A stretch of DNA of 64,000 nt from a virus (IMGVR_UViG_2816332320_000003:99173-163172), one strand, 5' to 3'; positions 1 through 57,947 are shown, counted from the first letter of the stretch. Numbers and translations are program-made. The notes: generated by a model not told the origin, from the sequence alone.

Positions 1-1
1 A

Positions 2-256
2 TCCTTATTAAAATTCAAAAAGGAAACAGTATATATAGTATACGAGTCAGGCGAAATACTACATGTAGAGATTCAGTCAGTAACACAAAAGGGTGACTAT
101 ATAGTTAAAATCTTTTCTAGTCAAGCAGACAAGGAAACAGCAAAAGATGTCCACTTGCCAAGCATAGTCTGGGATGGCGTAGATTATGAAGTATTAATCA
201 ATAGATCGTTAATTCAAAAAATAGTATATGTAAACGATAAGAAAAGGATAGAGTAA
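2..256 (+). CDS. 3' part of hypothetical protein (truncated by window start)
   Basis: Open frame SLLKFKKETVYIVYESG...NDKKRIE ends TAA at 254-256 and runs into a hairpin. Confidence 0.6.
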   Translation, partial: SLLKFKKETVYIVYESGEILHVEIQSVTQKGDYIVKIFSSQADKETAKDVHLPSIVWDGVDYEVLINRSLIQKIVYVNDKKRIE

Positions 257-271
257 AATATCTATCCTTTT
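242..271. terminator. likely bidirectional intrinsic terminator
   Basis: Inverted repeat AAAAGGATAGA / TCTATCCTTTT between convergent genes. Confidence 0.65.
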
Positions 272-339
272 CCTGTTTTTGAGAGTTCAAATTAATACAT
301 TCTTTTATTAGGAATAAGAAAAACCGCTTTTATGGCGGT

Positions 340-645
340 TTATAATTCGACTCTTTCTACTTGTATGCTCTCCAGATCATAACCGAATTTCGGATCTGGT
401 GAAAGTGATTTTCTAGCTTTTGTTGTTGCCGTTTTTTCTGATGTCGCTTCAACTCGTATTGCATTTACTCTTTGCATAGTTTCTTGTTCTATTGCGGTTA
501 CTTGGAACCAGTATTTTTCAGTTGGCTTCGTTTTTCTCATCTCAAAACCTTTACCCATGCAATCATAGCAAACGCCGTTGTCTTGATGTCTGTAACAATT
601 GATAACTCCTGTGCCGCTGCACTTTTTACACGTTACTTTGAACAT
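340..645 (-). CDS. small Zn-binding protein (two CxxCxGxG motifs)
   Basis: CKKCSGTG and CYDCMGKG motifs; RBS AGGAGG; own promoter. Confidence 0.75.
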   Translation of the reverse strand: MFKVTCKKCSGTGVINCYRHQDNGVCYDCMGKGFEMRKTKPTEKYWFQVTAIEQETMQRVNAIRVEATSEKTATTKARKSLSPDPKFGYDLESIQVERVEL

Positions 646-681
646 CTCAGACCGCCTCCTATGTATTTGCTTCTTGATTAC

Positions 682-710
682 ATTATACGATAGTCACTTT
701 GCTAAATCAA
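682..710 (-). promoter_or_regulatory. sigmaA-type promoter
   Basis: Minus-strand TTGATT-17-TATAAT with an AT-rich upstream tract. Confidence 0.7.
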
Positions 711-779
711 GTATTTGTATATTTTTATATATTATATCCAAATAAAAAACCGATTAGATTAGGAAAAGAAATAACCAGA

Positions 780-1046
780 TTACTCTGGTCTTCTAAGTGC
801 AATTATTAATTTGTTAATCTTTAATATGTCATTATCACTTAAAATCTCATCCATATAGAAATCGTTGGCTGATGTAAGTGTGTCAATCATAATCTCGCTT
901 AGTGATTTATCTTGCCACTTTTTAACCATCCAACCCTCTTCTTCATGTCCATTTTCTACGGGAACGTCTTGCCCTAATAGATCAGCAATTTCAGAAAGGA
1001 TGAGTTGATCCAAATCTTTTCCCAATGCCTGCATGGTGTTCCACAT
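780..1046 (-). CDS. hypothetical phage protein
   Basis: 88-aa ORF with RBS GAGGAG. Confidence 0.7.
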   Translation of the reverse strand: MWNTMQALGKDLDQLILSEIADLLGQDVPVENGHEEEGWMVKKWQDKSLSEIMIDTLTSANDFYMDEILSDNDILKINKLIIALRRPE

Positions 1047-1085
1047 ATTAATCCGCTCCTCGATATGTATTTCTTACTTATCTAT

Positions 1086-1113
1086 ATTTTACCACAACAG
1101 AACTAGTTGTCAA
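1086..1113 (-). promoter_or_regulatory. sigmaA-type promoter
   Basis: TTGACA, 16-nt spacer ending in an extended-10 TG, then TAAAAT. Confidence 0.6.
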
Positions 1114-1213
1114 TGTATTATTTTTATAATTTTATATTTAATAAAACTGCAATTTGATTGAAAACCAAAGAATCCATTTACACGGCTTCTGCTTGTTAAT
1201 TCCATATTGCTAC

Positions 1214-1624
1214 TTAATTACTTTTTAGATTGACACACTTTAATCCTTTTTCGTCCGTAATTCCATGTTTAGTTAAATAATTTGATATTTCTATATCAGT
1301 TGGATTCTCAATACGTTCTTCAGCGTTCCATCTTGACGAGCCATCAGCACAAAAATAAGCCATATCAACAATTCCACTTGGTTCTTCCTTATAACATCTA
1401 GCATATTCATCCTTTAATTCTTCAATTTCTTCATCGTTAGTACCACTACCAAAATGTTCTTTAAATTTGATAGTAGATTTAGTTAATAATACCTTTAGAT
1501 CATTATTCTGTGGAAAATGATCAACTAGAATTACCTCCGCATTGTCGTGTAATAGAGAATAATCTTCAGAAATAACTCTAACAAAACCATAGTCCCCATT
1601 GGGTTTAATCCGCTTTTCCCACAT
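1214..1624 (-). CDS. hypothetical phage protein
   Basis: 136-aa ORF with RBS AAGGAGAGGG. Confidence 0.7.
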   Translation of the reverse strand: MWEKRIKPNGDYGFVRVISEDYSLLHDNAEVILVDHFPQNNDLKVLLTKSTIKFKEHFGSGTNDEEIEELKDEYARCYKEEPSGIVDMAYFCADGSSRWNAEERIENPTDIEISNYLTKHGITDEKGLKCVNLKSN

Positions 1625-1673
1625 AGGAAAACCACCCTCTCCTTATGCATCTAATTTAAGTATAGCAAATCAA

Positions 1674-1874
1674 TTACAATACAACCAGATTGGTATCATT
1701 ACTTGGAGATAAGACAAAGCCTTTCCCCTCGTCATCCTCTTTGGCAGTCTCACAGTATGCAACGTTACCCCAATAGCGATTAGGGTATGTGTGATCAGGT
1801 TTAGAGTGAATTGAGTAGATATTGATTTCACCTTTGCAATGATTGTCCATTTTACATATTCCCATGCAACGCAT
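1674..1874 (-). CDS. small Cys-rich hypothetical protein
   Basis: 66 aa, four Cys, RBS AAGGAGGT. Confidence 0.7.
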   Translation of the reverse strand: MRCMGICKMDNHCKGEINIYSIHSKPDHTYPNRYWGNVAYCETAKEDDEGKGFVLSPSNDTNLVVL

Positions 1875-1921
1875 ATGTATGACCTCCTTTTTAAATTTTA
1901 TATTATAAATCTAGTTTGATA

Positions 1922-2179
1922 TCAAACAACTTCCACAGAAAGAACTTCTTCAATCATTTCATTGATATCATTAACATGTATTTCGTTTACTGTAACCTCA
2001 TCATTACATATCTCAATAGTGCAATTATTGGTTAGAATTGTGTAACTGATTGCATTGAGCAGGAACACATCATAATCAATTGGTTCATGCTTTACGTTAT
2101 GTGATTTAAGAGCTTTTTCAGCTTCCTTGACCGTTCTTTTTGTTAATTGCACACCAGCGTATCTTTTATTACTTAACAT
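1922..2179 (-). CDS. hypothetical phage protein
   Basis: 85 aa, RBS AAGGAGTG. Confidence 0.7.
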   Translation of the reverse strand: MLSNKRYAGVQLTKRTVKEAEKALKSHNVKHEPIDYDVFLLNAISYTILTNNCTIEICNDEVTVNEIHVNDINEMIEEVLSVEVV

Positions 2180-2242
2180 TGTTGGTCACTCCTTATAATC
2201 ATTCTAAATAACCTTTCATTGTGACACTACACTACTACCAAT

Positions 2243-2806
2243 TCATTGCGCCCACTGTTCTAGAGCCTCCAGAACACCTTTCTTTGTCTTTGGAAGTTTA
2301 ACACCTGTCATTTTAGTAAAGAACTCTTTAGAAGCATCGTTCCAGCCTTTTGGATGTCCTAGACATGATACAAGGTGTGGCATGTACTTATTGCGGATTG
2401 AGTAGATAAAAACCTTGTGGTCATCTCTTGGTTGAATGTTGTAGCCATATGATTTATTGAGATATTCTGATCCTATACAATCCTTATCATCGTCTGAAAT
2501 TTGGCTCCTTGCCATTTGTATTAATTCTCTTCCCTTTTCTATCTTCTTTTCCTTCTCTGCTGCTTTGCGCTCTCTTTCTATTCGTTGATCACGTAAAGAC
2601 CAATCGATATAGAACGTTCCAGTAATGCCCTTCATTTTGACTTTAAAAGACTTACCTTTTATGTACTCTTGTAAGATATTATCAGGCACGTAAAACCCTT
2701 TTTTATTGTCGGATCTATAGAATAGATGACCTTTCTCATCGGTCTTTTGGTAATACCATTTTGTTGTTTTCGTTCGCAGGATAATTTCATTAAATTTGTA
2801 TTCCAT
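2243..2806 (-). CDS. hypothetical phage protein
   Basis: 187 aa, RBS GGAGG. Confidence 0.75.
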   Translation of the reverse strand: MEYKFNEIILRTKTTKWYYQKTDEKGHLFYRSDNKKGFYVPDNILQEYIKGKSFKVKMKGITGTFYIDWSLRDQRIERERKAAEKEKKIEKGRELIQMARSQISDDDKDCIGSEYLNKSYGYNIQPRDDHKVFIYSIRNKYMPHLVSCLGHPKGWNDASKEFFTKMTGVKLPKTKKGVLEALEQWAQ

Positions 2807-2845
2807 TATGTATCATCCTCCATTATTTTGTTTGAAAGACCGCTT

Positions 2846-3067
2846 TTATGAGATTCTTTGAATAAAGGGATAGTGTTTTGCAACTGGATCATTTTCTACA
2901 TCTTCCCCTGTATCAGCCCATACAACTTGCATAAATCCAGTTTCATTGACTCTAGCCATACGTCCAAACAAATCTCCACCACCAATACATACAAACTCAG
3001 TTCCCCTTGCCTTATTAATCATCTCATTGATATAAGTAACATTTGCACGTTTTTTCATTATATACAC
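2846..3067 (-). CDS. hypothetical phage protein (start probably ATG 3058)
   Basis: ORF with AAGGTG RBS; its stop codon lies inside the 18-bp repeat. Confidence 0.65.
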   Translation of the reverse strand: MYIMKKRANVTYINEMINKARGTEFVCIGGGDLFGRMARVNETGFMQVVWADTGEDVENDPVAKHYPFIQRIS

Positions 3068-3109
3068 CTTCTTTGTTTTTATTTATATAAAATAACCATT
3101 TGCTTACAT

Positions 3110-3331
3110 TTACTCTTTGATTGTTTTTAGCCTCTTATTGATCAATTTTAGTTCCTCTTCGAAGAACTTAACTTGTCCCTCATTATTCTGTTCCTTGTGG
3201 TATTTAATTGCTCCTTCTGTGTAGCCTTTTCTATAAAGTAAACTTTCTTTTTTTGCAATAGACATTACAGAATGACAAGCAGTTGAACCCTTGTATTCAA
3301 AGTCAATATAAGTCATTATGGAGACCTCCAT
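3110..3331 (-). CDS. hypothetical phage protein
   Basis: ORF with GGAGG RBS before an internal ATG (MTYIDF). Confidence 0.65.
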   Translation of the reverse strand: MEVSIMTYIDFEYKGSTACHSVMSIAKKESLLYRKGYTEGAIKYHKEQNNEGQVKFFEEELKLINKRLKTIKE

Positions 3332-3376
3332 TTATGTATTTTTAACTTACAATAAAATAGTCATTTCATAAGAATA

Positions 3377-3571
3377 TTATCTGTACACCTGTAATTCCTC
3401 AATAAGAGAAAAACAATTAGTTTTATTTAATTTCTCTACACAGGATGGGTGAAGCTTCGGAAAATGCTTCTTAAATATAGTCTTTGCTTCTTCTCTTGTT
3501 TCTGCTTCAATTACTTCTGAATCCATTTGCATGCGATGAATGAAGTACTCAACAATATACAATTTTTTCAC
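3377..3571 (-). CDS. hypothetical phage protein
   Basis: 64 aa, GTG start with GGAGTG RBS, closely following the upstream gene. Confidence 0.65.
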   Translation of the reverse strand: MKKLYIVEYFIHRMQMDSEVIEAETREEAKTIFKKHFPKLHPSCVEKLNKTNCFSLIEELQVYR

Positions 3572-3577
3572 TTTCCA

Positions 3578-3808
3578 TCACTCCACTATAAATTGATTTT
3601 TAACTAATAAAGTGTACTGTTCTTCTGTAAGCTGCGTATGTCTTGAAAAGCCTAGCCTGTCACTTATATAGTTGTAGATTGCTTCTCTTTCTTGATTTGT
3701 TGCATTTTCAAATGTTTTATAAGAATCAATAACTTCGTAGATATTCACGCTATAACCTATCAGATTAGCTTTCCTGAATGCCTTTTCAAGTGCTTTATGC
3801 TTTTTCAC
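3578..3808 (-). CDS. hypothetical phage protein
   Basis: 76 aa, AGGTGA RBS. Confidence 0.65.
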   Translation of the reverse strand: MKKHKALEKAFRKANLIGYSVNIYEVIDSYKTFENATNQEREAIYNYISDRLGFSRHTQLTEEQYTLLVKNQFIVE

Positions 3809-3816
3809 ATTATCAC

Positions 3817-4476
3817 CTACACATTAATCTTCACTATTAATTTGCCCTTGATATTACTGATAGCATCCTGCATGAACTGTTTATCAAAAGACAGATATTT
3901 AGACTGTTTTACTGTCATATGTTGATCCTGCTTAACTACTCTCTTTGTGAGACTATCGACATCAATATCTAACCATCCATCATAGACAAGTAATGTATTT
4001 TTAGGAAGGATTCTATTACTGTACAAAGAGCGTTTACGTTTTGGCTTATGTATGATGTTCAATGACTCTCTATATTGTGCATATGGCTCAACTAGAACCC
4101 TTTCTACAACTGTATTGATTACAACTGGAAAACCAAAGTCAGAGAACTTGATGATGGTTACTTTTCTGCCGTGTGTAAGCTGCTCTGTAGCTTGTTGGAA
4201 ATCGCTTTGTACATAGTGCATGTACTGTCGTAGCAAGGAAGCCATAGTTGCAAACAATTCTTTTTCTGCCTCTGTTATAATTTCATTGGTAATTTTGATA
4301 TTTTTAACTTTCAATTCACCAAAGAACAAATCTTTAACTTGTACTTTTTGCTCATCGGTCATATTTTGATAAGCAACGCAATCTACTACTTTAAAGAATA
4401 CTTCCCCTAGCATATCTGCCAGTTGATCAACTTTCTGGATGAGATTCATTTCTTCAAAAGTGATTGTGATAAGCAT
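3817..4476 (-). CDS. hypothetical phage protein
   Basis: 219 aa, RBS AAGGAGTG. Confidence 0.8.
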   Translation of the reverse strand: MLITITFEEMNLIQKVDQLADMLGEVFFKVVDCVAYQNMTDEQKVQVKDLFFGELKVKNIKITNEIITEAEKELFATMASLLRQYMHYVQSDFQQATEQLTHGRKVTIIKFSDFGFPVVINTVVERVLVEPYAQYRESLNIIHKPKRKRSLYSNRILPKNTLLVYDGWLDIDVDSLTKRVVKQDQHMTVKQSKYLSFDKQFMQDAISNIKGKLIVKINV

Positions 4477-4509
4477 ATGTATACACTCCTTAGTATAGTA
4501 TATTTTTAA

Positions 4510-4605
4510 TTACTTAATGATCAATGTCCCAGTAACAACTAGACTCTTCAGAGCCAACAACCGTTGAATTTTTGACTTTGCTACAGCTAATTGTGTTTGA
4601 GACAT
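4510..4605 (-). CDS. 31-aa basic amphipathic peptide (not in ORF track)
   Basis: MSQTQLAVAKSKIQRLLALKSLVVTGTLIIK, GCGGGG RBS, directly downstream of promoter 4642-4670. Confidence 0.45.
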   Translation of the reverse strand: MSQTQLAVAKSKIQRLLALKSLVVTGTLIIK

Positions 4606-4641
4606 TTTTCATTACCCCGCTTCGTTTGTTTTGTTACTCTT

Positions 4642-4670
4642 ATTATAATTGAATATAAGTAAGTTATCAA
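4642..4670 (-). promoter_or_regulatory. sigmaA-type promoter of early operon
   Basis: TTGATA-17-TATAAT. Confidence 0.7.
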
Positions 4671-4751
4671 CCATTTTATCATATATTTTTATATTTATTT
4701 TTGAAATAAAAATAGACCTGATTTAATCAGATCATAGAGAAAATACATTTT

Positions 4752-5068
4752 CGTCCGAATAACGCAAGGCGTTATTCGGACGGTCGAGGAATACCGCGCT
4801 CTTTGCGGTATGGGCTGACAAGCCTTGTTTTAGGTTGGATGATTACTGAAGCTGCTTGCATGGAAAAAGTTGAACATATAGTTCCCTATAGCAAGGTAAG
4901 AAAAGTTGTCCGTTTTGATATGGTGTATTAGTATATAGTATGTATAATAATATCCTATTCAAAATGGACAACTTTTAAATTTTAGTTATAAACCAATTTG
5001 ATTTAGAAATTTGTCACCTTGGAGCCGTATATAGTATTTATGTATTACAGCTTGAAGGTGACAAATTT
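4752..5068. repeat. cluster of four inverted repeats (candidate origin or structured element)
   Basis: Perfect 14-bp stem 4752-4782; 7-bp stem 4791-4811; long stems 4901-4976 and 5007-5068 that share the loop motif GTATATAGTAT. Confidence 0.8.
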
Positions 5069-5075
5069 TATATTT

Positions 5076-6218
5076 TTATATGTTAAACACTTTTGTTTTG
5101 ATTCTTCGTACATTTTTTCTAAAGGAACTTGGTGATTCCTTTGGTTCATCGTCTATTAGGTTGTCAATTAGCTCTTTATTGTCCTCAAGATATGTATCAT
5201 CAACTCTTCTTAGATACCTATCTCTATTTTTTAGAGTTTCATCAGCTAACTTTTCTTTTGCTTTTTCAATACGAACTATATCATTTTGTCCCAATGTGCA
5301 AATAACTTTGTCGTTTAACGTTCTTTCTGTAGCTAGCCTAGTATCATCATTCAATGTTAATTTGGATAGTTCTAACTTTACCTCATTAATATGTTCTTCA
5401 TTGAAAATAATTTTATATGAATCATAATAGTAAACAATGTTGTATTGATCAAATAGAATCTGATCAACCCTTTCCCTAAACACTTCCCATTTACCTTTTC
5501 GAATAGCTACTGATTTATCTTCACAGTTTAGTTCCATAAGAATAAGACGTTCAGTATGTAAAATTGCTTTTACTTCTTTGTCAGTGGCTTCCCTATGTTC
5601 TTCGTAAGTTCTCATGATTGGGTTGTATACATTCGTCTTCTCTTCATAATGATTGTAAGTTGTTTCTTTGTGGAGCTTAACCTGTAGATTCTTATTAAAC
5701 CGAGTTTCAACATTAGCAACACATACAGTTTTTGAAGGTGACCAAAAGACCAACGATTTATTACTTAGTCTATTTAAACCTCCTTCAATTGCCCGTTGTA
5801 ATGTATTACTGGTCAACTCATAAAATTCATAGATATTATCTTCTGGAATCTGTAGGTATTTTGATAACTTGCCTATGTTGTATCTACCAAAGTTGTAATT
5901 GTCATTAACCATATTTAACACTTTAAATAGTTGACTCTTAGGAAGAAACACTCTCCCCTTTTTACTTACCAGTAGATTAAGAATAAGTTCTTCAATATAG
6001 TTTACCATTCCAAACCGTTTTGTTTCTTTTTCCTGAGGTACATTGTAGATATCCTCAATGATGAAACAATGACCAGCTTTGCTGTATTTAAAATGTAATT
6101 CAAATTCCGCTAACTGGATTTGTTTTGACTTCCCTGTCTTAGTGCTGACTCCTAATAGCAAACACAACTCCTTATAATTCTTGACTGTTTCGCCAACTTT
6201 TAGCTTAGTTAAATCCAT
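5076..6218 (-). CDS. phage protein, possible DNA-binding/replication initiator
   Basis: 380 aa, Lys-rich N-terminus (KNYKELC..GKSKQIQL); ends 8 nt before the hairpin cluster. Confidence 0.6.
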   Translation of the reverse strand: MDLTKLKVGETVKNYKELCLLLGVSTKTGKSKQIQLAEFELHFKYSKAGHCFIIEDIYNVPQEKETKRFGMVNYIEELILNLLVSKKGRVFLPKSQLFKVLNMVNDNYNFGRYNIGKLSKYLQIPEDNIYEFYELTSNTLQRAIEGGLNRLSNKSLVFWSPSKTVCVANVETRFNKNLQVKLHKETTYNHYEEKTNVYNPIMRTYEEHREATDKEVKAILHTERLILMELNCEDKSVAIRKGKWEVFRERVDQILFDQYNIVYYYDSYKIIFNEEHINEVKLELSKLTLNDDTRLATERTLNDKVICTLGQNDIVRIEKAKEKLADETLKNRDRYLRRVDDTYLEDNKELIDNLIDDEPKESPSSFRKNVRRIKTKVFNI

Positions 6219-6219
6219 T

Positions 6220-7068
6220 CTATTCCGCCTCTAACCAGTTACTGAGTAAAGTTTCCATTCGTTTAGAAGGTATGTATATCTGTATTGTTTTTTCTATATC
6301 TGATACATCAACTATCCACTTTAGTAAAATTGATAATGCATACTTGTCATCATCTATAATCGTCGTACCCTTGTATTGACTTTTTAAAAATCCATTAGGG
6401 AAACAATTTGCTGCAAAACATAAATAGTTTCGCTTATCTTCTTTGTATGTTTCACCATTCATTGGAACAAATGCTTTTGTGTTTCCTTTATAACATAGTT
6501 GCCTGTGATGCTGCATAAATGTCGTCCATGCTCTCTCATTAGCTATTGAATCGGTTTTGTTTGTATAGTAGTTTCCTATGTTTAATTTTAATTGTATTAC
6601 TTCATTTGGATTTTTAATAAACCAAGTTTTTGATAAGTCATATTTATTGCTCCCAAAGTTATACAGCTTTCCAGTTTTTTCTTGGATTACAATGTTCTTG
6701 ACTAGTTTTGATTTTACATCATCATTTATATTCTCACAGTATCTAATGTTCTCTTCAAATTCTTTAGGTACAGAAATAGACTTGTAACTAGTTGAACTTA
6801 CAACATTATAAAGATTATCAAATAGTTCACCATCTATATACTCCTGTTCTCTGTGCAATAAATTGTTTTTATTCTGGACAATTTCTAATAATGAAAATGA
6901 GAAATCAGAAATTCCATATTGGTTCCAATCATTTTGTAGCTTATATGAATGATGAGTTTTATATCTTAGATTAGACAGATGTTGACCCCATCTCTTCATT
7001 ACATCTTGAGCACTTCCTATATATTTTCTCCCATTTATATTATTTGTTATCTGGTAAATTCCCATCAT
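6220..7068 (-). CDS. GIY-YIG endonuclease fused to YonV-like helicase C-terminal region
   Basis: GIYQITNNINGRKYIGS, then R and E catalytic positions; C-terminal YALS.LL.WI...IYIPSKRM..LL.NWL motif. Confidence 0.8.
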   Translation of the reverse strand: MMGIYQITNNINGRKYIGSAQDVMKRWGQHLSNLRYKTHHSYKLQNDWNQYGISDFSFSLLEIVQNKNNLLHREQEYIDGELFDNLYNVVSSTSYKSISVPKEFEENIRYCENINDDVKSKLVKNIVIQEKTGKLYNFGSNKYDLSKTWFIKNPNEVIQLKLNIGNYYTNKTDSIANERAWTTFMQHHRQLCYKGNTKAFVPMNGETYKEDKRNYLCFAANCFPNGFLKSQYKGTTIIDDDKYALSILLKWIVDVSDIEKTIQIYIPSKRMETLLSNWLEAE

Positions 7069-7171
7069 ACTCTGATAATTTTCCCCCTTCTGTGTTCATT
7101 AGTTCTATGGCTGCTGAACTCTTTCCTGACCCTGTGATACTGTCAACAACTCGAATGATTGGTGATTGCAT
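7040..7171 (-). pseudogene. 43-aa N-terminal fragment of YonV-like helicase with Walker A
   Basis: GAGGAG RBS, then MQSPIIRVVDSITGSGKSSAAIELMN...; stops at 7040, overlapping the GIY-YIG start out of frame. Confidence 0.7.
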
Positions 7172-7194
7172 GTAGCTCCTCCTCTATTTGCAAT

Positions 7195-7359
7195 CTATTT
7201 TCTCTTTCGATGCCTAAAGAATCCAATAACAGATATGATGATAGTTAGAATGCTTAATGTCACTAATGCTTTGATGAATAATCCAGTTAAAGTGATTAGA
7301 TTCATTAGAACTAAAGAAGCTGTAATGATAAGGAATACATATACTAGCTTTGTTCTCAT
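7195..7359 (-). CDS. small two-TM membrane peptide, YoyJ-like position (putative type I toxin)
   Basis: 54 aa, hydrophobic with RHRKRK tail; RBS AAAGGAG. Confidence 0.65.
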   Translation of the reverse strand: MRTKLVYVFLIITASLVLMNLITLTGLFIKALVTLSILTIIISVIGFFRHRKRK

Positions 7360-7398
7360 GTGGAATTCTCCTTTCTTGAGTATGTTTATGTGAATCAG

Positions 7399-7427
7399 TT
7401 GTAAAAGACTATGCGATTGCATATAAT
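7399..7427 (+). promoter_or_regulatory. sigmaA promoter for antisense RNA
   Basis: TTGTAA-17-TATAAT pointing into the 3' end of the minus-strand toxin-like gene. Confidence 0.65.
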
Positions 7428-7433
7428 AAAATG

Positions 7434-7535
7434 TAAGGGAATAAGAGAGCCTATACCAGCACTCTCTTATTGTGAGAAGTTTTAGCGTTTGCGGTGTGTT
7501 TCCTTTCGTGGAGGAAATGCACCGTTTGTCGTTTC
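7434..7535 (+). ncRNA. putative SR6-like antisense antitoxin RNA (~100 nt)
   Basis: Upstream promoter, stem 7441-7470, and long stem 7491-7525 followed by a U-rich tail; complementary to the toxin mRNA 3' end. Confidence 0.5.
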
Positions 7536-7664
7536 TGGGTGTGTACGCTTCTTCTCACGCTCCAATCTTCTAGCTCGTTTCTCGTTGTGTATGTATGTGG
7601 TTGTCGCTAGGAGAAAGGATGCAATGGGTAGAATGTAAGTAACAATGAAGTGTAAGATGTTCAA
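7482..7664 (-). CDS. YonT-like type I toxin candidate
   Basis: 60 aa, single N-terminal TM helix and very basic C-terminus; TTG start with GAGGTG RBS; extended -10 TGaTATAAT at 7702-7710. Confidence 0.6.
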   Translation of the reverse strand: MNILHFIVTYILPIASFLLATTTYIHNEKRARRLEREKKRTHPETTNGAFPPRKETHRKR

Positions 7665-7798
7665 GTGTCTCACCTCGTTTCCCATCTCCCTTACAAGATT
7701 AATTATATCATATATTGAGTTTGTTTTTATAGTATATTTTTAGATATTAAAACAAAAAAGCCCGTTATATTGGGCTTCGTACTACTATTATATGAATG

Positions 7799-8020
7799 CT
7801 ATCCCACGTTCTCATTCTGGTCTTGAGTAGATTCAGGTTCATTTGCTACATATTGATCAATTACCTTCGATCCTTCCTCATCTACAAAATCCTGTTCGCA
7901 ATGATTACAAACTAAATGCCTAACATTTGGGATAATATGAGTGGTTGATCCACGTTGATATGAAAAGGATTTATATATTGGCTCCAGTGTTCCAGTATTA
8001 CAAATTGGGCATGTGCTCAT
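7799..8020 (-). CDS. YgiT/MqsA-type zinc finger protein
   Basis: CPIC...IPNV...VCNHCEQ pattern. Confidence 0.8.
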   Translation of the reverse strand: MSTCPICNTGTLEPIYKSFSYQRGSTTHIIPNVRHLVCNHCEQDFVDEEGSKVIDQYVANEPESTQDQNENVG

Positions 8021-9078: not shown

Positions 9079-9451
9079 ATGTATCCGCTCCCTTAGTTAT
9101 CTTATTGATTATATTATAACATACTTTTATTTATTATTGTAGTTTATTTTTAGTTATTATGTGATTGTTGTTATACGTGCAATGGAGTGGTGACAATAGA
9201 GAGAAAGATAATAAGTGATGAGTAGTATGCTGTACACATGTGTGCAATGTAATGATGTACTGTAGTGATTGAACATAAGTGTTCAATTGTCTGACAAATG
9301 TTACCCTAACGATATGCAACCATTTGGTGTCATGTTTAATTGCTCATGGATGTTGTTTTAAAAAAAGATAATAGATAGTTATGGTCGTCATATGTGATAG
9401 TTATCATCTTAGTATGTGTAAGCAGCATAGATATATGAATAGATTAATGAA

Positions 9452-9479
9452 ATTGCTTATAACCTATCTTATACGCAAG
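9452..9479. other. dif/Xer-like tyrosine recombinase site (11-6-11)
   Basis: ATTGCTTATAA-CCTATC-TTATACGCAAG; the arms are inverted near-copies. Confidence 0.6.
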
Positions 9480-9831
9480 TAAATTGAGTGTCGTATCAGT
9501 GGGTAGGGGGGCAATTTACATTATGGAACCCCTTTTACTTACCAAAAGTTAGTAAAGCACATCTAGGCACGGGCGTTGCTTATAAAACTTTACTACGATT
9601 ATTTTGATGTAAAATTTACCCCAGAACCAATCGTGTGGCGTATCGTGTAAATGCACTTATACCAACAAAAAATTCACTGTCTCCCATCTGCTAAATTTGA
9701 ATATTAATGATATTGTTTCAGCTACTTTATCTCCTTTTGCTTGATATGTCTGCATTTTCACGATACACATGCTACATCGTAGACATTAAACTTTACGATG
9801 CACAAAAAAGAGACGGTATTATCCATCCCTT

Positions 9832-11693: not shown

Positions 11694-12731
11694 CTACTTC
11701 AATTTGTTGGTTATCTCCATTTTTACACTCGTACTACAAGACATTATCAAATCTATAATTTCTTCTTTAGATATTTCTTCAAGTACCGACAGATCAATCC
11801 CTCTTCCCATTGTATACGAAGCCATCTCTCTATAGTTCTTTGTCATTGGTAAATATGTTTTTAAAGTAACACTGGGATCTGCATGATGCGCTTGCTGCTG
11901 CGCTACTTTAATATCGTTATTACTTTCAATGTATGCCTGATTAACTCCAGCTTTTTTTAATGAGTGGAATGAGATGTTACGTTCTTCAGATATGTCCATC
12001 TCTTTACATAGTGCATCCATCATATTATCCAGTGTTCTGAGTGACTTAATCGTAAAAACTCGATCACTACTTTTTGCTTCTTCTTTTTTAAGTCCCAATA
12101 TATCTTCGAATAACTCTTCAGGGATTGATGTGTCAATTAGTACATTCCCTTTGTCATATACAGTTATTACTGGAACTCCATCTACCACTTTAAAATTTTC
12201 CCAAACAACATGAAGAATGGCATCCTTTCGGATAGATGTTTGCGCTGCTAAAAGGATGATTACTGACTTCTCTTCCCCGTCCCTGTGTTTTTTGACTCGT
12301 GCAGCCATTTCATTGACTTCTTCCCAAGCTAGAAAGCCAATTGGATTAACTCTCACTGGCAATGCACGAAGCTCAAAAGGAATTTTATCAACTTGATATC
12401 CATATGTGGGTAGCTCATTATATAGTGATCTCATTACATCAATTTTATGGTTGATTGTGTTATTTGTGTATTTAGGAGAACCATCTTCCTTTACCAGTCG
12501 CTGTAGATGGTTTCTGTAATCATTTACCTGAAGTCGAGTGACATAAATATCTTCTTCAGTTAACTCGTTAATTTTCTTTCCTTTAATATAAGAAAAGAAT
12601 TGTTTAATATCATACTCATAACTCGCTTTAGTTTTATCACTGGCACTGCCTACATCATCCAGATACGCTAGAATTGCGTTATATACATTACTTACATTGA
12701 TACTGGTTACGTTGCTTATTGCACTCTTCAT
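11694..12731 (-). CDS. tyrosine recombinase, YopP-like
   Basis: R (TSIRK), K (DKG), HSLKK, H (AHHAD) and Y (LKTY); N-terminal SAM-like core-binding domain. Confidence 0.85.
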   Translation of the reverse strand: MKSAISNVTSINVSNVYNAILAYLDDVGSASDKTKASYEYDIKQFFSYIKGKKINELTEEDIYVTRLQVNDYRNHLQRLVKEDGSPKYTNNTINHKIDVMRSLYNELPTYGYQVDKIPFELRALPVRVNPIGFLAWEEVNEMAARVKKHRDGEEKSVIILLAAQTSIRKDAILHVVWENFKVVDGVPVITVYDKGNVLIDTSIPEELFEDILGLKKEEAKSSDRVFTIKSLRTLDNMMDALCKEMDISEERNISFHSLKKAGVNQAYIESNNDIKVAQQQAHHADPSVTLKTYLPMTKNYREMASYTMGRGIDLSVLEEISKEEIIDLIMSCSTSVKMEITNKLK

Positions 12732-13374: not shown

Positions 13375-15963
13375 TTGGATAAACAGGTCTTGATTCATAG
13401 TGTTGATACAAGCTTCTTTTATGATGAAAAAGAATTAAAATTACATAATAAACTAAAAAGACCATTCATTATTAAATCTCAAATTAAAAAGCGTATACTT
13501 AAAGCTAAAAACGAGGAAGAAAAACTTAAGTTGCAACGGCATTATACTTACTGCAATAAACGAATTAAAAAGCTAAAAGAATTATTGAAACATCAACTTA
13601 CTTTACATAAAGGGATTCGGACTTTAAATGATAAACTTCTAAGTAAAAAGACTTATATATCTGTGTTTGATTCAGTCTTAACACGAACACTTGGACTCAC
13701 ACCTGATAAACTTTCTGAAGACTTAATGGTTGTACAAACCTACTATTTTAAAGTACTTGAAGACATTATTCTATATGGCTACATGTACAAAAACGAGAAA
13801 TATGTATGCTTTACTGCTAGTGCTGGTCAAATTAGAACCAAAAAGACTGTATTTATCAAAGAAGCTGTCTTTAAAAGGCATCTCAACTCCCTTACTTGCG
13901 GATTATCTATTGATCAGATTAATGAGCAAGGTGGCGTGAATATCAATAAATATCTCGCCTACCTTGCACTTTGTAACTCTGCTACAGATGAGTGGACTGA
14001 TTTTGACATAAGCAAAGCAATTGTAGTTGATGATATGGAAACTACTGTGCGTAGCGTTGTTGATTATATTGATGATAGTACCTATGAAATCACAAGAAAA
14101 GAAATGGATATTTTGATTAGTCATACAGATGGCTGTGGAATGATACTTCCCCGTAAGAATAAACGAAGTATGATGGTTCGATTGCCTTGGATCAAGGGGC
14201 TGCTTGTCTCCTTCCCCTTTGATAAGTTTGTGCGTGAAGCAAACCGCAAGGGAGATGGTAAAAAGTATGGTGTTGTGACTGACATTTATGGAAAACAACA
14301 TGATCTTATTAAAGACGGAATTGAAGTGATATTCACTAAAAGTCAATTCAAAATGTACAAGTACTATCGTGATTGGCATTCATATAAAGATAATTTTGTA
14401 AAGTACAACTGTCAGGCTGGGAAATGTAATGAGGAAGAGTCCCTACTCACCAATGCAAAGATCAACTATCAGATGCTTCAAACCCTTACCGACATGACGA
14501 ATGATGAGCTTGAGGCTCTAAGCAAAAAGACTAAAGATAGCATTATTAATATTGGCAGAGATAAAGAAACAATGCTCAAAGTTCTTGGTGTTGTAAAGGC
14601 AAATATCAATAAAAACTATCTACAACAAGCGCTTGAGATCTACCCTGAATTATTAAGTGATACATATAGCAAGGAAATACTCAAGAATGTTAAGAAAAGC
14701 ATGGTTAGAGACGCTAGGGCTGCAAAAATTGATATCGAAGGAAAGTATACGTTCATTTGTCCAGACTTATATGCTTTTTGTCAGTGGTTGATTCTTGGAG
14801 AGAAGCATCCAAGTGGTTTACTAGAGAATGGGCAAGTGTCATGTAGATTGTACAAAGACGCACCCAAGTTAGATTGTCTCCGCAGCCCACACTTGTATTT
14901 AGAGCACGCAGTTCGAAACAATATAATCACAAAGGAAATGACTCGCTGGTTTGTGACTGATGGTGTATACACTAGCATACATGATCCTATCAGCAAGATA
15001 TTGATGTTTGATGTTGATGGGGATAAAGGTTTGGTTTGTGCAGACCCACTACTGATTGAAATTGCAGAGCGCAATATGCAAGATATAGTACCACTCTACT
15101 ACGACATGAAAGTCGCTGGTAAGAGCACTATTACTAACAGAGATATTTATAATGGACTTAAAGCAGCATATACAGGGGGAAATATTGGTGTAATTTCGAA
15201 TAACATTACGAAGATCTGGAATAGTGACGACCTCAAACTTGACGTGATTAAATGGTTGTGCATGGAGAATAACTTCACTATCGACTATGCTAAGACATTA
15301 TACAAATTAAAAAGACCTAAAGATATTGGCAAGCAGATTACTCAGTATACAAAAAAGAAAGTCCCCCATTTTTTTATGTATGCAAAAGATAAGCAAAGCA
15401 ATGAGGTAGAAAAGGCAAATAACAGCGTGGTAAATAGACTAAGTAAGATCATTCCAAACACCAGAATCAATTTTGAAGCAGCTAATTTAGGTAAATTCAA
15501 CTATAAGATGTTAATGAGTTGCAATGATATAACAATAGATAATAACATTATCGCTTTATACACTGAATTGGATCTTAATAAGCATTTTATTGAGATTGAA
15601 GCCAATGATCGGGACTTCACTGGCGACAACCAATTTGTTTACAGAGACATTCGTAATCAAATTCTTGAAATGAACAATGATGTTCATTACGTTGTAAATG
15701 TTCTTGTAAAGTATCTATACGAGAATAAAAAAAGTAATCATAAGACGACCTTGTGGTCGAGTTTTGGTGATATCATTGTTTCAAATCTAAGGAAAAATAT
15801 CGAAGAACGGTATGGTGAAAACAATACCCAGTGCGATTCTTGCTTCAAGAGAATTGAGGTTAAAGGGAAGAATCATAAGATGTGTAATGAGTGCTGGAAG
15901 CAACATCGTAGAGAATACCAAAGGCTACTAATGCAAGAAAGGCGCAAGAATAAAATTTGTTAG
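13375..15963 (+). CDS. yonO: YonO-type single-subunit DNA-dependent RNA polymerase
   Basis: Catalytic DVDGD, RSPH, DGCG and IDYAK motifs; 862 aa; C-terminal CxxC..CxxC; positioned before HU and the late genes. Confidence 0.9.
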   Translation: MDKQVLIHSVDTSFFYDEKELKLHNKLKRPFIIKSQIKKRILKAKNEEEKLKLQRHYTYCNKRIKKLKELLKHQLTLHKGIRTLNDKLLSKKTYISVFDSVLTRTLGLTPDKLSEDLMVVQTYYFKVLEDIILYGYMYKNEKYVCFTASAGQIRTKKTVFIKEAVFKRHLNSLTCGLSIDQINEQGGVNINKYLAYLALCNSATDEWTDFDISKAIVVDDMETTVRSVVDYIDDSTYEITRKEMDILISHTDGCGMILPRKNKRSMMVRLPWIKGLLVSFPFDKFVREANRKGDGKKYGVVTDIYGKQHDLIKDGIEVIFTKSQFKMYKYYRDWHSYKDNFVKYNCQAGKCNEEESLLTNAKINYQMLQTLTDMTNDELEALSKKTKDSIINIGRDKETMLKVLGVVKANINKNYLQQALEIYPELLSDTYSKEILKNVKKSMVRDARAAKIDIEGKYTFICPDLYAFCQWLILGEKHPSGLLENGQVSCRLYKDAPKLDCLRSPHLYLEHAVRNNIITKEMTRWFVTDGVYTSIHDPISKILMFDVDGDKGLVCADPLLIEIAERNMQDIVPLYYDMKVAGKSTITNRDIYNGLKAAYTGGNIGVISNNITKIWNSDDLKLDVIKWLCMENNFTIDYAKTLYKLKRPKDIGKQITQYTKKKVPHFFMYAKDKQSNEVEKANNSVVNRLSKIIPNTRINFEAANLGKFNYKMLMSCNDITIDNNIIALYTELDLNKHFIEIEANDRDFTGDNQFVYRDIRNQILEMNNDVHYVVNVLVKYLYENKKSNHKTTLWSSFGDIIVSNLRKNIEERYGENNTQCDSCFKRIEVKGKNHKMCNECWKQHRREYQRLLMQERRKNKIC

Positions 15964-16183: not shown

Positions 16184-16504
16184 ATGAACAAAACAGAACT
16201 GATTGCAAAAGTGGCTGAAACCACAGAACTCACCAAGAAAGATGCAACAAAAGCAGTTGATGCAGTTCTTGACGCAATTGCAGATGCATTGAAAACTGGT
16301 GATAAAGTCCAACTGATCGGCTTTGGTAACTTCGAAGTTCGTGAACGTGCGGCTCGTAAAGGCGTAAATCCTAAATTGCTGAAAGAATTGAAAGAGCAAG
16401 GTGTGGATGATGCCTCTGCAAAAGAACAAGCGAAGGTTGATATCGCTGCTACTAAGGTTCCAGCTTTCAAGCCAGCCAAGGCACTCAAAGAATCAGTTAA
16501 GTAG
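16184..16504 (+). CDS. hup: HU-family DNA-binding protein with extended beta-arm (YonN-like)
   Basis: MNKTELI...[24 protein letters not shown]...KVPAFKP. Confidence 0.93.
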
Positions 16505-16631
16505 CTTACAATGCTGATATAGGCTTTTACAATAATGCTGTCAATATGACTATACGGGGATTGGTGATTACACCTCTCCCCTATTTAAATATCATAATAA
16601 AAAGAGGATTTCATTCAATTATGGGAGGTAA

Positions 16632-16883
16632 TTGATTATGGCAAAGCGGACAAATGCAATTGGATATAATGGTGCAGTTTACATCAATCCAGACAATAAC
16701 CATATTATTGTGGCTGAGTATGATAAGAAGACTGAGGAAACATCTTACTTTGATTTAACAGAAGAAATTAAACAGTTCTTCGTTGGTGTTAGCGGAGATG
16801 TGGCTATTTCTATTTCAGAAAAAGCTACAGTACAAAGTCAGTTAGAAGATCCATTTTCTAGCCAAGACGAAGATCAAGAGTAA
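16632..16883 (+). CDS. YonK-like protein
   Basis: Size, acidic tail and position between HU and the phosphoesterase. Confidence 0.55.
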   Translation: MIMAKRTNAIGYNGAVYINPDNNHIIVAEYDKKTEETSYFDLTEEIKQFFVGVSGDVAISISEKATVQSQLEDPFSSQDEDQE

Positions 16884-18124: not shown

Positions 18125-18431
18125 AAATAGTGAATCCGTTAGAGTGCAAGGAGTTTATTTCATTCGGAATAACAAAAACGGTTCAATTAAAATAGGCAGC
18201 TCTAAAGATATATTTAAGAGATTCAGCCAATTAGTTAGCAAGGCTAAATCAACAGGCGAAAAGTTCCCTGATTTAGAACTTGTATATTACTTTCCTTGTT
18301 CTCAATATAAAGAACTAGAGAAAAAACTGCACCATGTCTTCTCAACAAGGAGAATCACTAATGAATGGTTTTTAACCAGTATTGAAGAGATTATTCACAT
18401 TGTAGATCGCTTAAAAAATAGATACTCATAA
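18117..18431 (+). CDS. GIY-YIG/T5orf172-like nuclease-domain protein
   Basis: GVYFI...IKIGSS..I.KR ... LEKKLH..F..RR...EWF. Confidence 0.75.
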   Translation: MCKNSESVRVQGVYFIRNNKNGSIKIGSSKDIFKRFSQLVSKAKSTGEKFPDLELVYYFPCSQYKELEKKLHHVFSTRRITNEWFLTSIEEIIHIVDRLKNRYS

Positions 18432-18655
18432 GTTCGAGATACAATCCCATCAAATATTAATTTTATTCAGTCCCATTTGGGCATATCCATAAAGGGACTC
18501 CCCCTCTTAAGAACTGTCTTAGGTCATTCAAGCAATCCTCTGCTTGAGTGACTCAAAGGCAGCTTTTTTGTGTTGCCTAATAGGGATAGGAGTGATCTGA
18601 CAAGAGGTAGCCCTCCCCTCCCTCTTCCCTATTCTCTTTTTATGGAGGTGTATTT

Positions 18656-27745: not shown

Positions 27746-29017
27746 ATGAAGATTGATGAAATCCGCAATTTCAAAAAGTATGTTGAGGGTGGGTCTTTCA
27801 ATAATGGCTTTCTAGATAAACTTGCAGATAGATACTCTCAGCAAAACAGCAGCTCTATCTCCACTTTCGATATCATTTTTAGTTCTAATCGAGTCAATGA
27901 GCTAATCAAGGATGGAATTTCTTATAAATGTGTTGTTGATTACGGTAACCTTCCATCTAAAGCAAATGTCAAAAGTGCCCAAAGAAGTTTTCATCATGAG
28001 GTATGGACAAAGCGTAATGACAACATTAGGACTGGGGATATTGTTGAGTTCTCTCACGATCCCCTCATAGATAAGAAAACTTTCATTATTATGAACACCT
28101 TGAAAACAAGAGATCAATATGATTTAAATGTTATGCAAATTACTCAAGGAACCTTGAAATGGTTAAACTCGTCAGGTGTCATTAAGGAAACTCCATTTAC
28201 TCAAAAATCAACCTCTTCAGCCTATCCTCTCGAAGAAGATAAAATTATGATTTTATCGAAAGAAAGACGTAACATTCTTGTTCAAGCGAATGAAGATACG
28301 CTAGGAATTGACAAAGGTCAACGATTCATCTTTGATAGACGCTGCTGGAAGGTTGTTGGGTTTGATGGTTTGACGACTGGACTCCTTGAGTTAACTGTTG
28401 AAGAAGACCAAATACATAGTTCTATTGACAACCTTGCACTTAGAATTGCTGATTATAATGGTAAGGTAACCGACTACAAGGTTTTAGTGTTGAATGGCTC
28501 TACAAACAGTTTAGCTTTAGATGATACATTGCAGCTAAATATTCGAGTCACTAACAGAGGATTTGATATCCCCTCCCCACTACTCCACTTCTCTTCATCA
28601 GACGATAGTATTGCAACTGTGTCTGAGACTGGATTGATTCAAGCGGTTGGTAAGGGAGAAGTAATTGTTCATATCACCTACAAGGACGTATCATCTTCTA
28701 TTAATATAAATGTAACTGACCGAAGAACTTACAATTACACCCTTGATATCATTGGTAGTGATGAGGTTAAAATTAGTAAATCTCAAAAATATCAAGTATC
28801 TTTCTTTAATAATGGAGAACCAATTAGTGACACTGCCAAATTCTCATTAACTTCATTAGATGGTACTCCTACTCAATTAGCAACTTTAAAGCCTCTAGAT
28901 AATACTACATGTGAAATCACAGCAGGAAAGGCAATTGGAAAGATTGTCTTAAATGTAAGTAATCAAAATGGATTAATAACTAACAAAAAAGAAATCAAAA
29001 TAAAATCATTGATATAG
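27746..29017 (+). CDS. head closure protein with Ig-like (Big_2) domains
   Basis: SSSDDSIATVSETGLIQAVGKGEV.V Big_2 signature. Confidence 0.65.
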   Translation: MKIDEIRNFKKYVEGGSFNNGFLDKLADRYSQQNSSSISTFDIIFSSNRVNELIKDGISYKCVVDYGNLPSKANVKSAQRSFHHEVWTKRNDNIRTGDIVEFSHDPLIDKKTFIIMNTLKTRDQYDLNVMQITQGTLKWLNSSGVIKETPFTQKSTSSAYPLEEDKIMILSKERRNILVQANEDTLGIDKGQRFIFDRRCWKVVGFDGLTTGLLELTVEEDQIHSSIDNLALRIADYNGKVTDYKVLVLNGSTNSLALDDTLQLNIRVTNRGFDIPSPLLHFSSSDDSIATVSETGLIQAVGKGEVIVHITYKDVSSSININVTDRRTYNYTLDIIGSDEVKISKSQKYQVSFFNNGEPISDTAKFSLTSLDGTPTQLATLKPLDNTTCEITAGKAIGKIVLNVSNQNGLITNKKEIKIKSLI

Positions 29018-33984: not shown

Positions 33985-34134
33985 TATGTCTGTAAAAGTA
34001 CCAGTAGGACTCCCTCCCCTACTGGCAGTCTTATATACATAACACAATCAAATTCTAGTTTTATTTAAAAATATTCCAATCACCACTCACCCTTGATGGT
34101 GATTTTTTTATTTCACCTGAAAGGATGTGGTCAT

Positions 34135-47777: not shown

Positions 47778-47792
47778 CTCCTTTTGTTTATT

Positions 47793-47851
47793 GTGTTCAT
47801 AAAGAACACTATTTGTTTTTCATTATAGGTGTTCACTATGAACACGGTCAA
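47793..47851. promoter_or_regulatory. two GTGTTC-N5-GAACAC operators and antirepressor promoter
   Basis: Palindromes at 47793-47809 and 47829-47845; minus-strand TTGACC-18-TATAAT (47851-47822). Confidence 0.75.
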
Positions 47852-47863
47852 GGAGAATTTTTC

Positions 47864-48091: not shown

Positions 48092-48142
48092 TATTATAAA
48101 TGGTAAAATCCTCCTAGTATAAACTAAGGGAGGATTTTCTTA

Positions 48143-49332: not shown

Positions 49333-49449
49333 TAATCCTTTTCTAATGCAAACCCAATCAAACATGAATTTTATCGAATTTTTACACCCATATATAGCGT
49401 CTGATGATTTCAGTATAACTATATATAGATAAAATAAGGTGGTGAATAA

Positions 49450-57841: not shown

Positions 57842-57947
57842 AATTATACAATAAAATATCACTTTTATTCGAAAAGCACGACTTAAAAACCCTTATGTAC
57901 CAAGGGTTTCACGATTCGTAAAATTTATAAAATGGAGGAATTTAATC

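Follow-up and report, generated by a model that had tools for sequence, protein, structure and literature searches.

What is the function of a short palindrome that recurs at one gene boundary after another in a large phage genome, and does it mark places where genes are exchanged? The question is raised by a stretch of 64,000 nucleotides (hereafter the window), which covers the final 64 kb (positions 99173-163172) of one virus record of 163,172 bp (IMGVR_UViG_2816332320_000003, G000). PHROG and Pfam scans identify the virus as a large SPbeta-like siphophage, and an 18-bp dyad, ATNAAA-N6-TTTNAT, lies between its genes. A reading made from the window alone (hereafter the sequence-only reading) had taken the dyads for recombination sites or scars that shuffle single-gene cassettes, possibly in an integron-like array, or alternatively for dispersed operators or nucleoid-protein sites. 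The reading that we favour, at a probability of roughly 0.45, is that the dyad is a site in double-stranded DNA for a putative phage protein and delimits swappable gene slots; that its primary job would be to control or insulate transcription at gene boundaries is a guess. A lineage-wide site present in 40-100 copies implies a conserved protein that reads DNA and a rule by which phages of 125-220 kb are assembled and reshuffled. The dyad is abundant in SPbeta, the model temperate phage of Bacillus subtilis, where it is apparently undescribed.

The exact form of the dyad occurs eight times in the window as opposed to 0.93 copies expected, and none of 100 shuffled sequences reached that number. 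With one mismatch allowed, 26 copies are present window-wide where 20.1 are expected, which is not significant since 12 of 100 shuffles reached 26. Intergenic DNA makes up 10.2% of the window and holds seven of the eight exact copies as well as 15 of the 26 one-mismatch copies. Dinucleotide-preserving shuffles confined to intergenic sequence yielded 0.13 exact and 3.0 one-mismatch copies, and the observed 7 or 15 were reached in none of 500. The distance between the arms is fixed. When spacers from 0 to 15 were scanned, N6 gave 8 exact copies in the window and the other spacers 0-3, while in the whole genome N6 gave 54 exact copies and every other spacer 0-5. The flipped arm order, TTTNAT-Nx-ATNAAA, was found 0-5 times in the whole genome.

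The 46 exact copies located beyond the window served to train a position weight matrix (PWM). At a score of at least 12 it marks 83 positions in the whole genome, 46 of which are the training sites, compared to 3.3 in block shuffles. At a score of at least 10 there are 97 non-overlapping hits; genes contain 23 of these, another 4 are partly intergenic, and the remaining 70 are intergenic. The long early operons beyond the window hold most of the copies. A scan of perfect 5-mer dyads that was blind to the motif placed this element at the top in the studied genome and in SPbeta, with TAAAA-N6-TTTTA counted 34 times against 1.7 expected. The excess over shuffled sequence that the sequence-only reading had proposed to look for is therefore found for exact copies; it is confined to N6 and survives shuffling within intergenic DNA. 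Together, these counts show that the motif exists, that its spacing is strict and that it is placed at gene junctions.

The family consensus is aATRAAA-N6-TTTYATt, and the coding strand in the studied phage usually reads ATAAAA-N6-TTTGAT. Six base pairs of each arm are conserved, together with one flanking base that respects the symmetry (A before, T after), and the residual asymmetry of the arms is explained by the stop codon that one of them contains. In the early operons, the coding strand shows a stop codon, then ATAAAA, a centre of six variable bases, TTT(G/C/T)AT, 0-13 nt, GGAGG and finally ATG, with the upstream stop codon often being a TAA or TGA within the first arm or directly 5' of it. 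The dyad is found at 38 of the 78 junctions with gaps of 16-60 nt, compared to 2 of the 48 junctions where genes overlap or are less than 16 nt apart, and about half of the usable junctions in the long operons carry it. The early genes considered by the sequence-only reading, which sit on the minus strand, are laid out differently: there the dyad is located between a terminator and the next promoter, and two units have sigma-A-like promoters and terminators. Copies in the late region follow the ends of genes and lie 17-189 nt ahead of the next start codon. In each of these settings the dyad marks the upstream edge of a gene unit. Because it keeps this position whatever lies next to it, including upstream of promoters, it probably functions on DNA and not in the downstream mRNA.

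The symmetry of the element does not come with folding. The mean minimum free energy of the dyad is -1.6 kcal/mol as RNA and -1.2 kcal/mol as DNA, the arms are paired in the minimum-energy fold at 23 of 54 sites as RNA and at 19 of 54 as DNA, and the variable positions 3 and 16 show no covariation. These values show that the dyad does not form a hairpin. The spacers of the 54 exact copies all differ from one another, reverse complements included.

The same element is present in other phages that encode a YonO-type single-subunit RNA polymerase, which in the window is located at 13375-15963 on the plus strand (phrog_8308, E 3e-288; 51% identity to SPbeta YonO). SPbeta contains 14 exact copies at N6 compared to 1-6 at other spacers, and 44 PWM hits compared to 6.3 expected. 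Its layout is also the same, namely a stop codon, ATAAAA-N6-TTTTA(T/A) and a ribosome site. Given as exact N6 copies over copies of a reversed control pattern, the counts are 17/4 in phi3T and 42/4 in Perkons, and 34/3, 39/1 and 28/1 in the uncultured YonO-encoding phages G006, G007 and G008, each of the three with a sharp peak at N6. The unrelated phages SPO1 (0/1), SPP1 (0/0) and phi105 (1/0) show no enrichment, and neither do host chromosomes that carry such prophages show an N6 peak, as judged from N6/N5 counts of 77/67 in Bacillus rugosus and, for two Paenibacillus genomes, of 35/37 and 53/76. At the variable position of the arm, the studied phage prefers G, G007 and G008 prefer C, and SPbeta prefers T or A. 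YonO itself is only 46-61% identical across the motif-positive phages. Loci of ±10 kb around YonO are poor in dyads in all phages, with a weak pooled excess at N6 (64 versus 8-57). The dyad thus characterizes most of this phage lineage, and its confinement to the lineage suggests a reader or process that is specific to the lineage as well. Over such distances it is not tied to particular genes: the homologue in SPbeta, G006, G007 or G008 has an upstream dyad in none of the 11 pairs whose gene has one in the studied phage, compared to 4 of the 53 pairs whose gene has none there.

Since close relatives of the studied phage were not found, homology breakpoints were examined in the SPbeta group, whose members are mutual mosaics. 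Megablast of window positions 1-8000 against the phage collection gave no match, and the most similar YonO proteins reach at most 66% identity in IMG/VR and 62% in GTDB genomes. Between SPbeta and phi3T, 10 of 45 breakpoints lie within 25 nt of a dyad, compared to 3.1% of random positions, and at the level of junctions the comparison in SPbeta coordinates is 8/13 versus 5/37 (p 0.002). The early regions of SPbeta, phi3T, Goe11, SPR and SPbetaL1 were then compared in all pairs, using high-scoring segment pairs (HSPs) of at least 150 bp and at least 85% identity. In each of the five genomes, 15-24 of 92-111 breakpoint clusters are at most 10 nt from a dyad, whereas only 1.3-1.8% of random positions are. 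Junctions with breakpoints are richer in dyads, with odds ratios of 4.5-9.4 and p values of 0.004-0.03 per genome. The difference is also seen when junctions are matched for gap length. With gaps of 30-150 nt and similar medians, 48 of 57 junctions with a dyad are breakpoints compared to 69 of 165 without one; with gaps of 30-80 nt the numbers are 31 of 36 and 44 of 111.

All 161 HSP ends adjacent to a dyad are true boundaries without colinear continuation. Homology starts just 5' of the dyad in 47 cases and in the first arm in 29, and it ends in the second arm in 24 cases and just 3' of the dyad in 29. The whole dyad, including its spacer, is retained at most block starts (76 of 90) and block ends (53 of 71). 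One block of 3.2 kb with 99.97% identity, for example, extends from the first base of one dyad to the inside of the second arm of the next. The sequence-only reading had proposed to check relatives for breakpoints within the 6-bp spacer, a placement that applies to only 2 of the 161 ends, and allelic copies in related phages share their spacers. In most cases, then, a gene on one side has been replaced and the dyad, with its own spacer, has stayed in place, as expected of a slot boundary. In the studied phage, small genes that have no homologue in the five comparison phages carry an upstream dyad in 48 of 141 cases versus 9 of 47 (p 0.067), and a dyad at the 3' end in 50 of 141 versus 9 of 47 (p 0.046). 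The comparison demonstrates that the dyad delimits exchangeable gene slots in the SPbeta group. That single genes or small blocks are shuffled at these sites, the part of the earlier proposal that is borne out, fits the enrichment of breakpoints at junctions with dyads in five phages of that group, with a recombinase as a possible agent.

The nine early sites that the sequence-only reading had listed differ in quality, as judged from their PWM scores and from 2000 shuffles of each junction. Three are strong, with no shuffle out of 2000 reaching the score: the exact dyads at 1141..1158 (PWM 21.5) and 3352..3369 (PWM 21.8), and the dyad with one mismatch at 742..759 (PWM 19.0). The first of these ends 27 nt upstream of the -35 hexamer in the promoter 1113-1086(-) of gene 780-1046(-). 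The second is located 7 nt past the stop codon of gene 3377-3571(-) and 20 nt ahead of the start of gene 3110-3331(-), and the third lies between the terminator 790-773(-) and the sigma-A-like promoter 710-682(-). Three further copies are weak: 291..308, with one mismatch, between the convergent genes 2-256(+) and 340-645(-) (PWM 10.8, junction p 0.0095); 2832..2849 (PWM 11.5, p 0.0005); and 3087..3104 between genes 3110-3331(-) and 2846-3067(-) (PWM 10.3, p 0.005). At 2832..2849 an arm contains the TAA stop codon of gene 2846-3067(-), just as had been noticed before, and is followed by the ribosome site of gene 2243-2806(-). The site at 1903..1920 has two mismatches and is indistinguishable from chance (best score of the junction -1.1, p 0.21). 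The one at 2202..2219, also with two mismatches, is marginal at best and not supported (best score 4.7, p 0.037). We rejected 316..333(-) as a copy of the dyad, as it scores below 8 and lies within a terminator-like hairpin, 341-321(-), 3' of gene 340-645(-). The claim of a copy at almost every early junction therefore holds for six of the nine sites.

Outside the early genes, the copies that had been called clean at 34047, 49357 and 57851 are all exact. The one at 34047..34064 lies between a YomM-like gene and the tape-measure gene 34093-39846(+), and the one at 57851..57868 lies between the endolysin gene 57083-57841(+) and the holin gene 57948-58259(+). The dyad at 49357..49374 forms the right edge of an accessory block (46676-49332) inside the tail module. 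This block encodes an anti-repressor Ant-like gene, a helix-turn-helix (HTH) gene and three genes without assigned function; two of the five genes are on the opposite strand, and no dyad was found at the left edge. Three more exact copies had escaped the sequence-only reading. One of them (16597..16614) lies between the HU-like gene 16184-16504(+) and the first late-strand gene that follows, 16632-16883(+); another (18449..18466) lies 17 nt past the stop codon of gene 18081-18431(+); and the third (28239..28256) is within gene 27746-29017(+) and may be a chance or relic copy. Overall, the earlier observation is partly confirmed: the non-random occurrence of the element is strongly supported, and three of the nine early copies fail.

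How could one element be both a functional site and a boundary of exchange? Strict spacing, symmetry without folding, a variable centre, restriction to one lineage and indifference to the transcript context together point to a site in double-stranded DNA that is contacted by two symmetric subunits. The dyad occupies the short non-coding stretch at the upstream edge of gene units, and we hypothesize that two symmetrically placed subunits of a conserved phage protein bind it as a duplex. The bound dyad may then control or insulate transcription across gene boundaries, in a way comparable to the stoperators or promoter-early stem-loops (PeSLs) of other phages. As the same short arms are found at dozens of boundaries, the dyad also delimits slots. 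Recombination between related phages replaces the gene beyond a dyad and usually keeps the dyad, the stop codon and the ribosome site, and the repeated boundaries would be the places where recombinants arise or survive. The binding of the dyad by a protein and the action of that protein are thus both inferred, as is the assumption that crossovers occur by ordinary short-homology or illegitimate recombination and not by a dedicated enzyme. A picture similar to that of the PeSLs of phage T4, in which the element has its own function and also serves as a recombination boundary, seems the most likely one. The earlier alternative of dispersed operators or nucleoid-protein sites becomes, as a possibility, part of this reading, and the earlier interpretation as a whole is partly supported, since the dyad is an exchange boundary and is not integron-like.

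Several observations weigh against the reading that we favour. Immunity operators normally diverge fast, and the conservation of the motif between heteroimmune and very distant phages therefore argues against a classical repressor operator. The 23 PWM hits inside genes are more than the approximately 9 that chance would produce over the whole genome at that score; these copies may be left over from former junctions or result from miscalled gene starts. One YonO-encoding phage, G009 (IMG/VR, 137,947 bp, locus L010, 27.8% GC), has no N6 peak, with 12 copies at N6 and 1-11 at other spacers. The breakpoint evidence stems from phages of the SPbeta group and not from the studied phage, and because the five genomes are related the tests on them are not independent. 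The junction-level comparison of SPbeta with phi3T is not significant in phi3T coordinates (5/13 versus 8/38, p 0.27). Moreover, the association between dyads and breakpoints could be indirect, and it might arise if variable accessory genes simply need the element. Finally, HU-like and YopP-like genes are both present in the five motif-positive genomes that were fully examined, and BLASTP detected neither of them in G009. In a survey of 108 YonO loci, however, a nearby HU-like gene made no difference to the N6 excess (with and without it, 34 versus about 9, and 85 versus about 23), and the presence of HU-like or YopP-like genes does not track the enrichment. No candidate reader is supported beyond plausibility.

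Could one of the tyrosine-recombinase-family proteins of the phage nevertheless be the reader? The sequence-only reading stated that the phage encodes two such enzymes. The window does contain two genes of this family, YopP-like at 11694-12731(-) and YomM-like at 32971-33984(+), which are orthologues of SPbeta YopP and YomM with unassigned functions; a third one, the true MrpR orthologue, is located beyond the window at genome positions 66748-67773 (Pfam MrpR_N_CB and MrpR_C_cat). The three paralogs sort into MrpR, YopP and YomM groups. In the parts of PMC8612738 considered here, YopP is described only as a XerC-superfamily-domain protein, and YopQ as ParB-like. Alignment with the XerD chain 1a0p_A and with family members shows that the first catalytic arginine, the histidine and the tyrosine are present in the YomM-like and YopP-like proteins, and that the second arginine is replaced by lysine. 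The YopP-like protein has HSLK where the family has HxxR, and the YomM-like protein has HLFK where XerD has HVLR and keeps the tyrosine. Both may be regarded as candidate readers of the dyad. The change from arginine to lysine is common to the YomM-like orthologues of the studied phage, SPbeta and G006, and to the YopP-like orthologues of the studied phage and SPbeta. If the dyad has a reader, it may provide a function for the tyrosine-recombinase paralogs, for the ParB-like YopQ or for the HU-like YonN.

A dedicated gene-slot system would thus be conceivable, in which a YomM-like or YopP-like candidate binds the arms and exchanges allelic copies with shared spacers between co-infecting or resident relatives, as a functional analogue of an integron. 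It would swap single genes cleanly between the built-in stop codon and the next ribosome site, and it would explain why several "integrases" are kept beside the serine integrase that actually integrates these phages. This explanation accounts for the inverted arms around a 6-bp spacer, for breakpoints that coincide with the arms and seldom with the spacer, and for the shared spacers of allelic copies. The conserved catalytic tyrosine and the presence of both paralogs in the five fully examined motif-positive genomes are in line with it, as is the 65% identity of the YomM-like protein to SPbeta YomM, compared to 51% for YonO, which might suit the reader of a conserved site. For phage Perkons, three tyrosine-type integrases have been reported whose role is unexplained (PMC13245101). 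On the other hand, only 6-7 bp per arm are conserved, and since the 54 spacers all differ, classical strand exchange between different copies is impossible. The lysine in place of the second catalytic arginine is found in both paralogs of the studied phage and of SPbeta, and G009 encodes a YomM-like protein yet has no motif peak. According to PMC10516654, the related MrpR lost its recombinase activity and now acts as a repressor. We therefore consider a dedicated system unlikely.

Somewhat less likely still is a passive linker that requires no reader at all. Here the dyad would provide a stop codon on either strand and an unstructured, A/T-rich spacer before the ribosome site, and it would spread with the genes that recombine harmlessly at it. 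Indeed, the first arm very often holds or abuts the stop codon (TAA giving ATAAAA, TGA giving ATGAAA), the ribosome site follows within 0-13 nt, and dyads and breakpoints are associated. Without a reader, however, it is hard to understand why the strict 6-bp spacing and the symmetry persist across phages whose YonO proteins are only 46-61% identical. The copies at 742, 1141, 18449, 49357 and 57851 adjoin neither a stop codon nor a ribosome site, and host genes, which have the same translational needs, show no N6 peak.

The location of the early-operon motif, transcribed and 0-13 nt before the Shine-Dalgarno sequence, would also suit a signal at the RNA level: the polycistronic early mRNA could carry a translational operator here, or a site for processing by an endoribonuclease. 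We regard this as very unlikely. The two halves of a palindrome in duplex DNA differ from each other once they are transcribed into single-stranded RNA, and hairpin formation is neither stable nor supported by covariation. In addition, the copy at 742 lies between a terminator and a promoter and that at 1141 upstream of a promoter, and further copies, in the late region, are 75-189 nt away from the next start codon.

Even less probable is a promoter for YonO, or for the host polymerase redirected by a phage factor. Among the tested phages the motif is enriched only in those that encode YonO, and it lies directly upstream of genes. Yet a single start site, upstream of yonK, has been reported for YonO in SPbeta (PMC5467207), and the yonK-yonN gap of SPbeta contains no dyad that scores at least 10. 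Most copies are found in early operons, the element is symmetric, two copies in the window are upstream of ordinary sigma-A-like promoters, and G009 has YonO without a motif peak. The spacer scans refute a compositional artefact of AT-rich intergenic DNA, for which the one-mismatch count in the window and the three failed early sites could have spoken, because the excess is limited to N6, survives intergenic-only shuffling and is absent from hosts and unrelated phages.

The remainder of the genome provides the setting of these sites. The window also contains terminase, virion and tail genes (PHROG and Pfam scans). Genome positions 1-99 kb consist almost entirely of early genes on the minus strand, which are co-oriented and tightly packed and encode ribonucleotide reductase, thymidylate synthase, dihydrofolate reductase, nucleases and several HTH regulators; this part of the genome also contains a TubZ-like gene. 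The latter, a TubZ/FtsZ-like GTPase on the plus strand, belongs to a lysogeny module (L087:5441-9169; genome 65441-69169) together with the MrpR orthologue and a YopQ-like gene of 467 aa. TubZ-like genes are known from the plasmid-like prophage of phage c-st, and by analogy the module may point to a plasmid-like prophage state. The early region beyond the window also encodes an AID/APOBEC-like deaminase-domain protein (L086:14270-15409), an IS605-type TnpB with OrfB and Cas12f-like TNB domains (L086:17906-19117), a MazF/PemK-like toxin (L088:8352-8768) and an AbiTii-domain protein (L088:9385-10335).

Within the window, a GIY-YIG homing-endonuclease-like gene (6220-7068) is separated by 1 nt from a gene for a protein of 380 aa (5076-6218). 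Two long non-coding gaps, 4477-5075 (599 nt) and 9320-9831 (512 nt), interrupt otherwise tightly packed genes. Inspection by eye shows that the first contains a small open frame, inverted repeats, a hairpin rich in GC and, resembling a promoter, TTGATA-N17-TATAAT; the two gaps could host small RNAs or a unit similar to type I toxin-antitoxin systems. A second repeated element, (C/A)TAAAAATATA, is strand-biased, with 20 copies on the early coding strand and 9 on the other. Its copies in the window (719, 4500, 4683, 5070, 7734 and 11658) are located just upstream of sigma-A-like -35 hexamers, and the element could be an UP-type element or an operator of the MrpR-like repressor of the phage.

How does the dyad compare with known systems? 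Like the attC sites of integron arrays, it separates co-oriented small genes, and genes are exchanged at it. An attC site, however, is an imperfect inverted repeat of 57-141 bp that folds as a single strand and has R and L boxes with a GTTRRRY core, and an integron array is headed by IntI, attI and the Pc promoter. The dyad has 18 bp, does not fold stably and precedes the ribosome site of the gene that follows. It is present at only about half of the usable operon junctions, in operons that also contain conserved genes for replication and nucleotide metabolism. No attC, attI, Pc or IntI was found; the two tyrosine-recombinase genes of the window match only the general Phage_integrase and SAM models of Pfam and neither heads the array, the IntI-specific insertion not having been examined. 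The integron-like interpretation is therefore not upheld.

With the core sites of tyrosine recombinases such as dif, lox and FRT, which have two inverted arms around a spacer of 6-8 bp, the dyad shares the strict 6-bp spacer between inverted arms, and this part of the earlier comparison stands. The arms of such core sites have about 9-13 specific bp and the spacers of partner sites are identical, whereas the dyad has arms of only 6-7 conserved bp and spacers that all differ within the genome and are shared only by allelic copies in related phages. Breakpoints are also scarce within the spacer, and both paralogs in the window carry lysine in place of the second catalytic arginine.

Among regulatory elements, a sigma-A promoter or an intrinsic terminator was rejected as an identity for the dyad, as neither is present within it. 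The operator of MrpR/SroF, SPBRE, which we derived from ten reported target promoters as roughly AAATACAAAWAATATGTATA, is likewise a repeated regulatory element of the same phage family, and its reader has a tyrosine-recombinase fold. The chromatin affinity purification sequencing (ChAP-seq) of MrpR is reported to have given ten peaks, each of them at an SPBRE-bearing promoter (PMC10516654). The dyad is not SPBRE, since its sequence differs and SPBRE sits within promoters at about 10 sites. We found no description of the dyad in the searched texts on MrpR, YonO, arbitrium and phage Perkons, among which the first account of the SPbeta genome (Lazarevic et al. 1999), which could mention it, is not included.

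In Cluster A mycobacteriophages (L5 and Bxb1, for example), stoperators are reported to be present in 20-30 copies per genome, to be asymmetric and oriented with transcription, to be bound by the immunity repressor and to vary from one heteroimmune phage to another (PMC6550527, PMC9283540). They resemble the dyad, of which there are about 40-100 per genome, in being dispersed and mostly away from promoters, and they set a reported precedent for protein-bound sites that block elongation. In contrast to them, the dyad is symmetric, distinct from the MrpR operator and common to SPbeta and phi3T, which are heteroimmune; the repressors of these two phages are reported not to cross-protect (bioRxiv 10.1101/2025.11.27.690993).

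The PeSLs of T4-type phages consist of a sigma-70-like promoter and a terminator stem-loop, and mini-circles arising from them are reported to have been shown physically (PMC2839356). As described there, they too are short conserved elements between small non-essential genes to which the differences between close relatives map, and they thereby bound the modules that are shuffled, a likeness that for the dyad applies to phages of the SPbeta group only. The dyad differs from them in having only 18 bp and neither promoter nor stem-loop.

In kind, the closest described thing is a 17-bp dyad repeat of Cluster O mycobacteriophages, TGTTCGGNNNCCGAACA, which according to the portion of PMC4351075 considered here has more than 30 copies, is mostly intergenic and has neither a known function nor a known reader. 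As reported, it shares with the dyad a copy number above 30, a variable centre, a location mostly between genes or at their 5' ends and the lack of a clear orientation. It differs in sequence, in the phylum of the host and in its 7-3-7 architecture as opposed to 6-6-6. The arms of the dyad are also less invariant, a stop codon is built into one of them, and its association with breakpoints was measured here.

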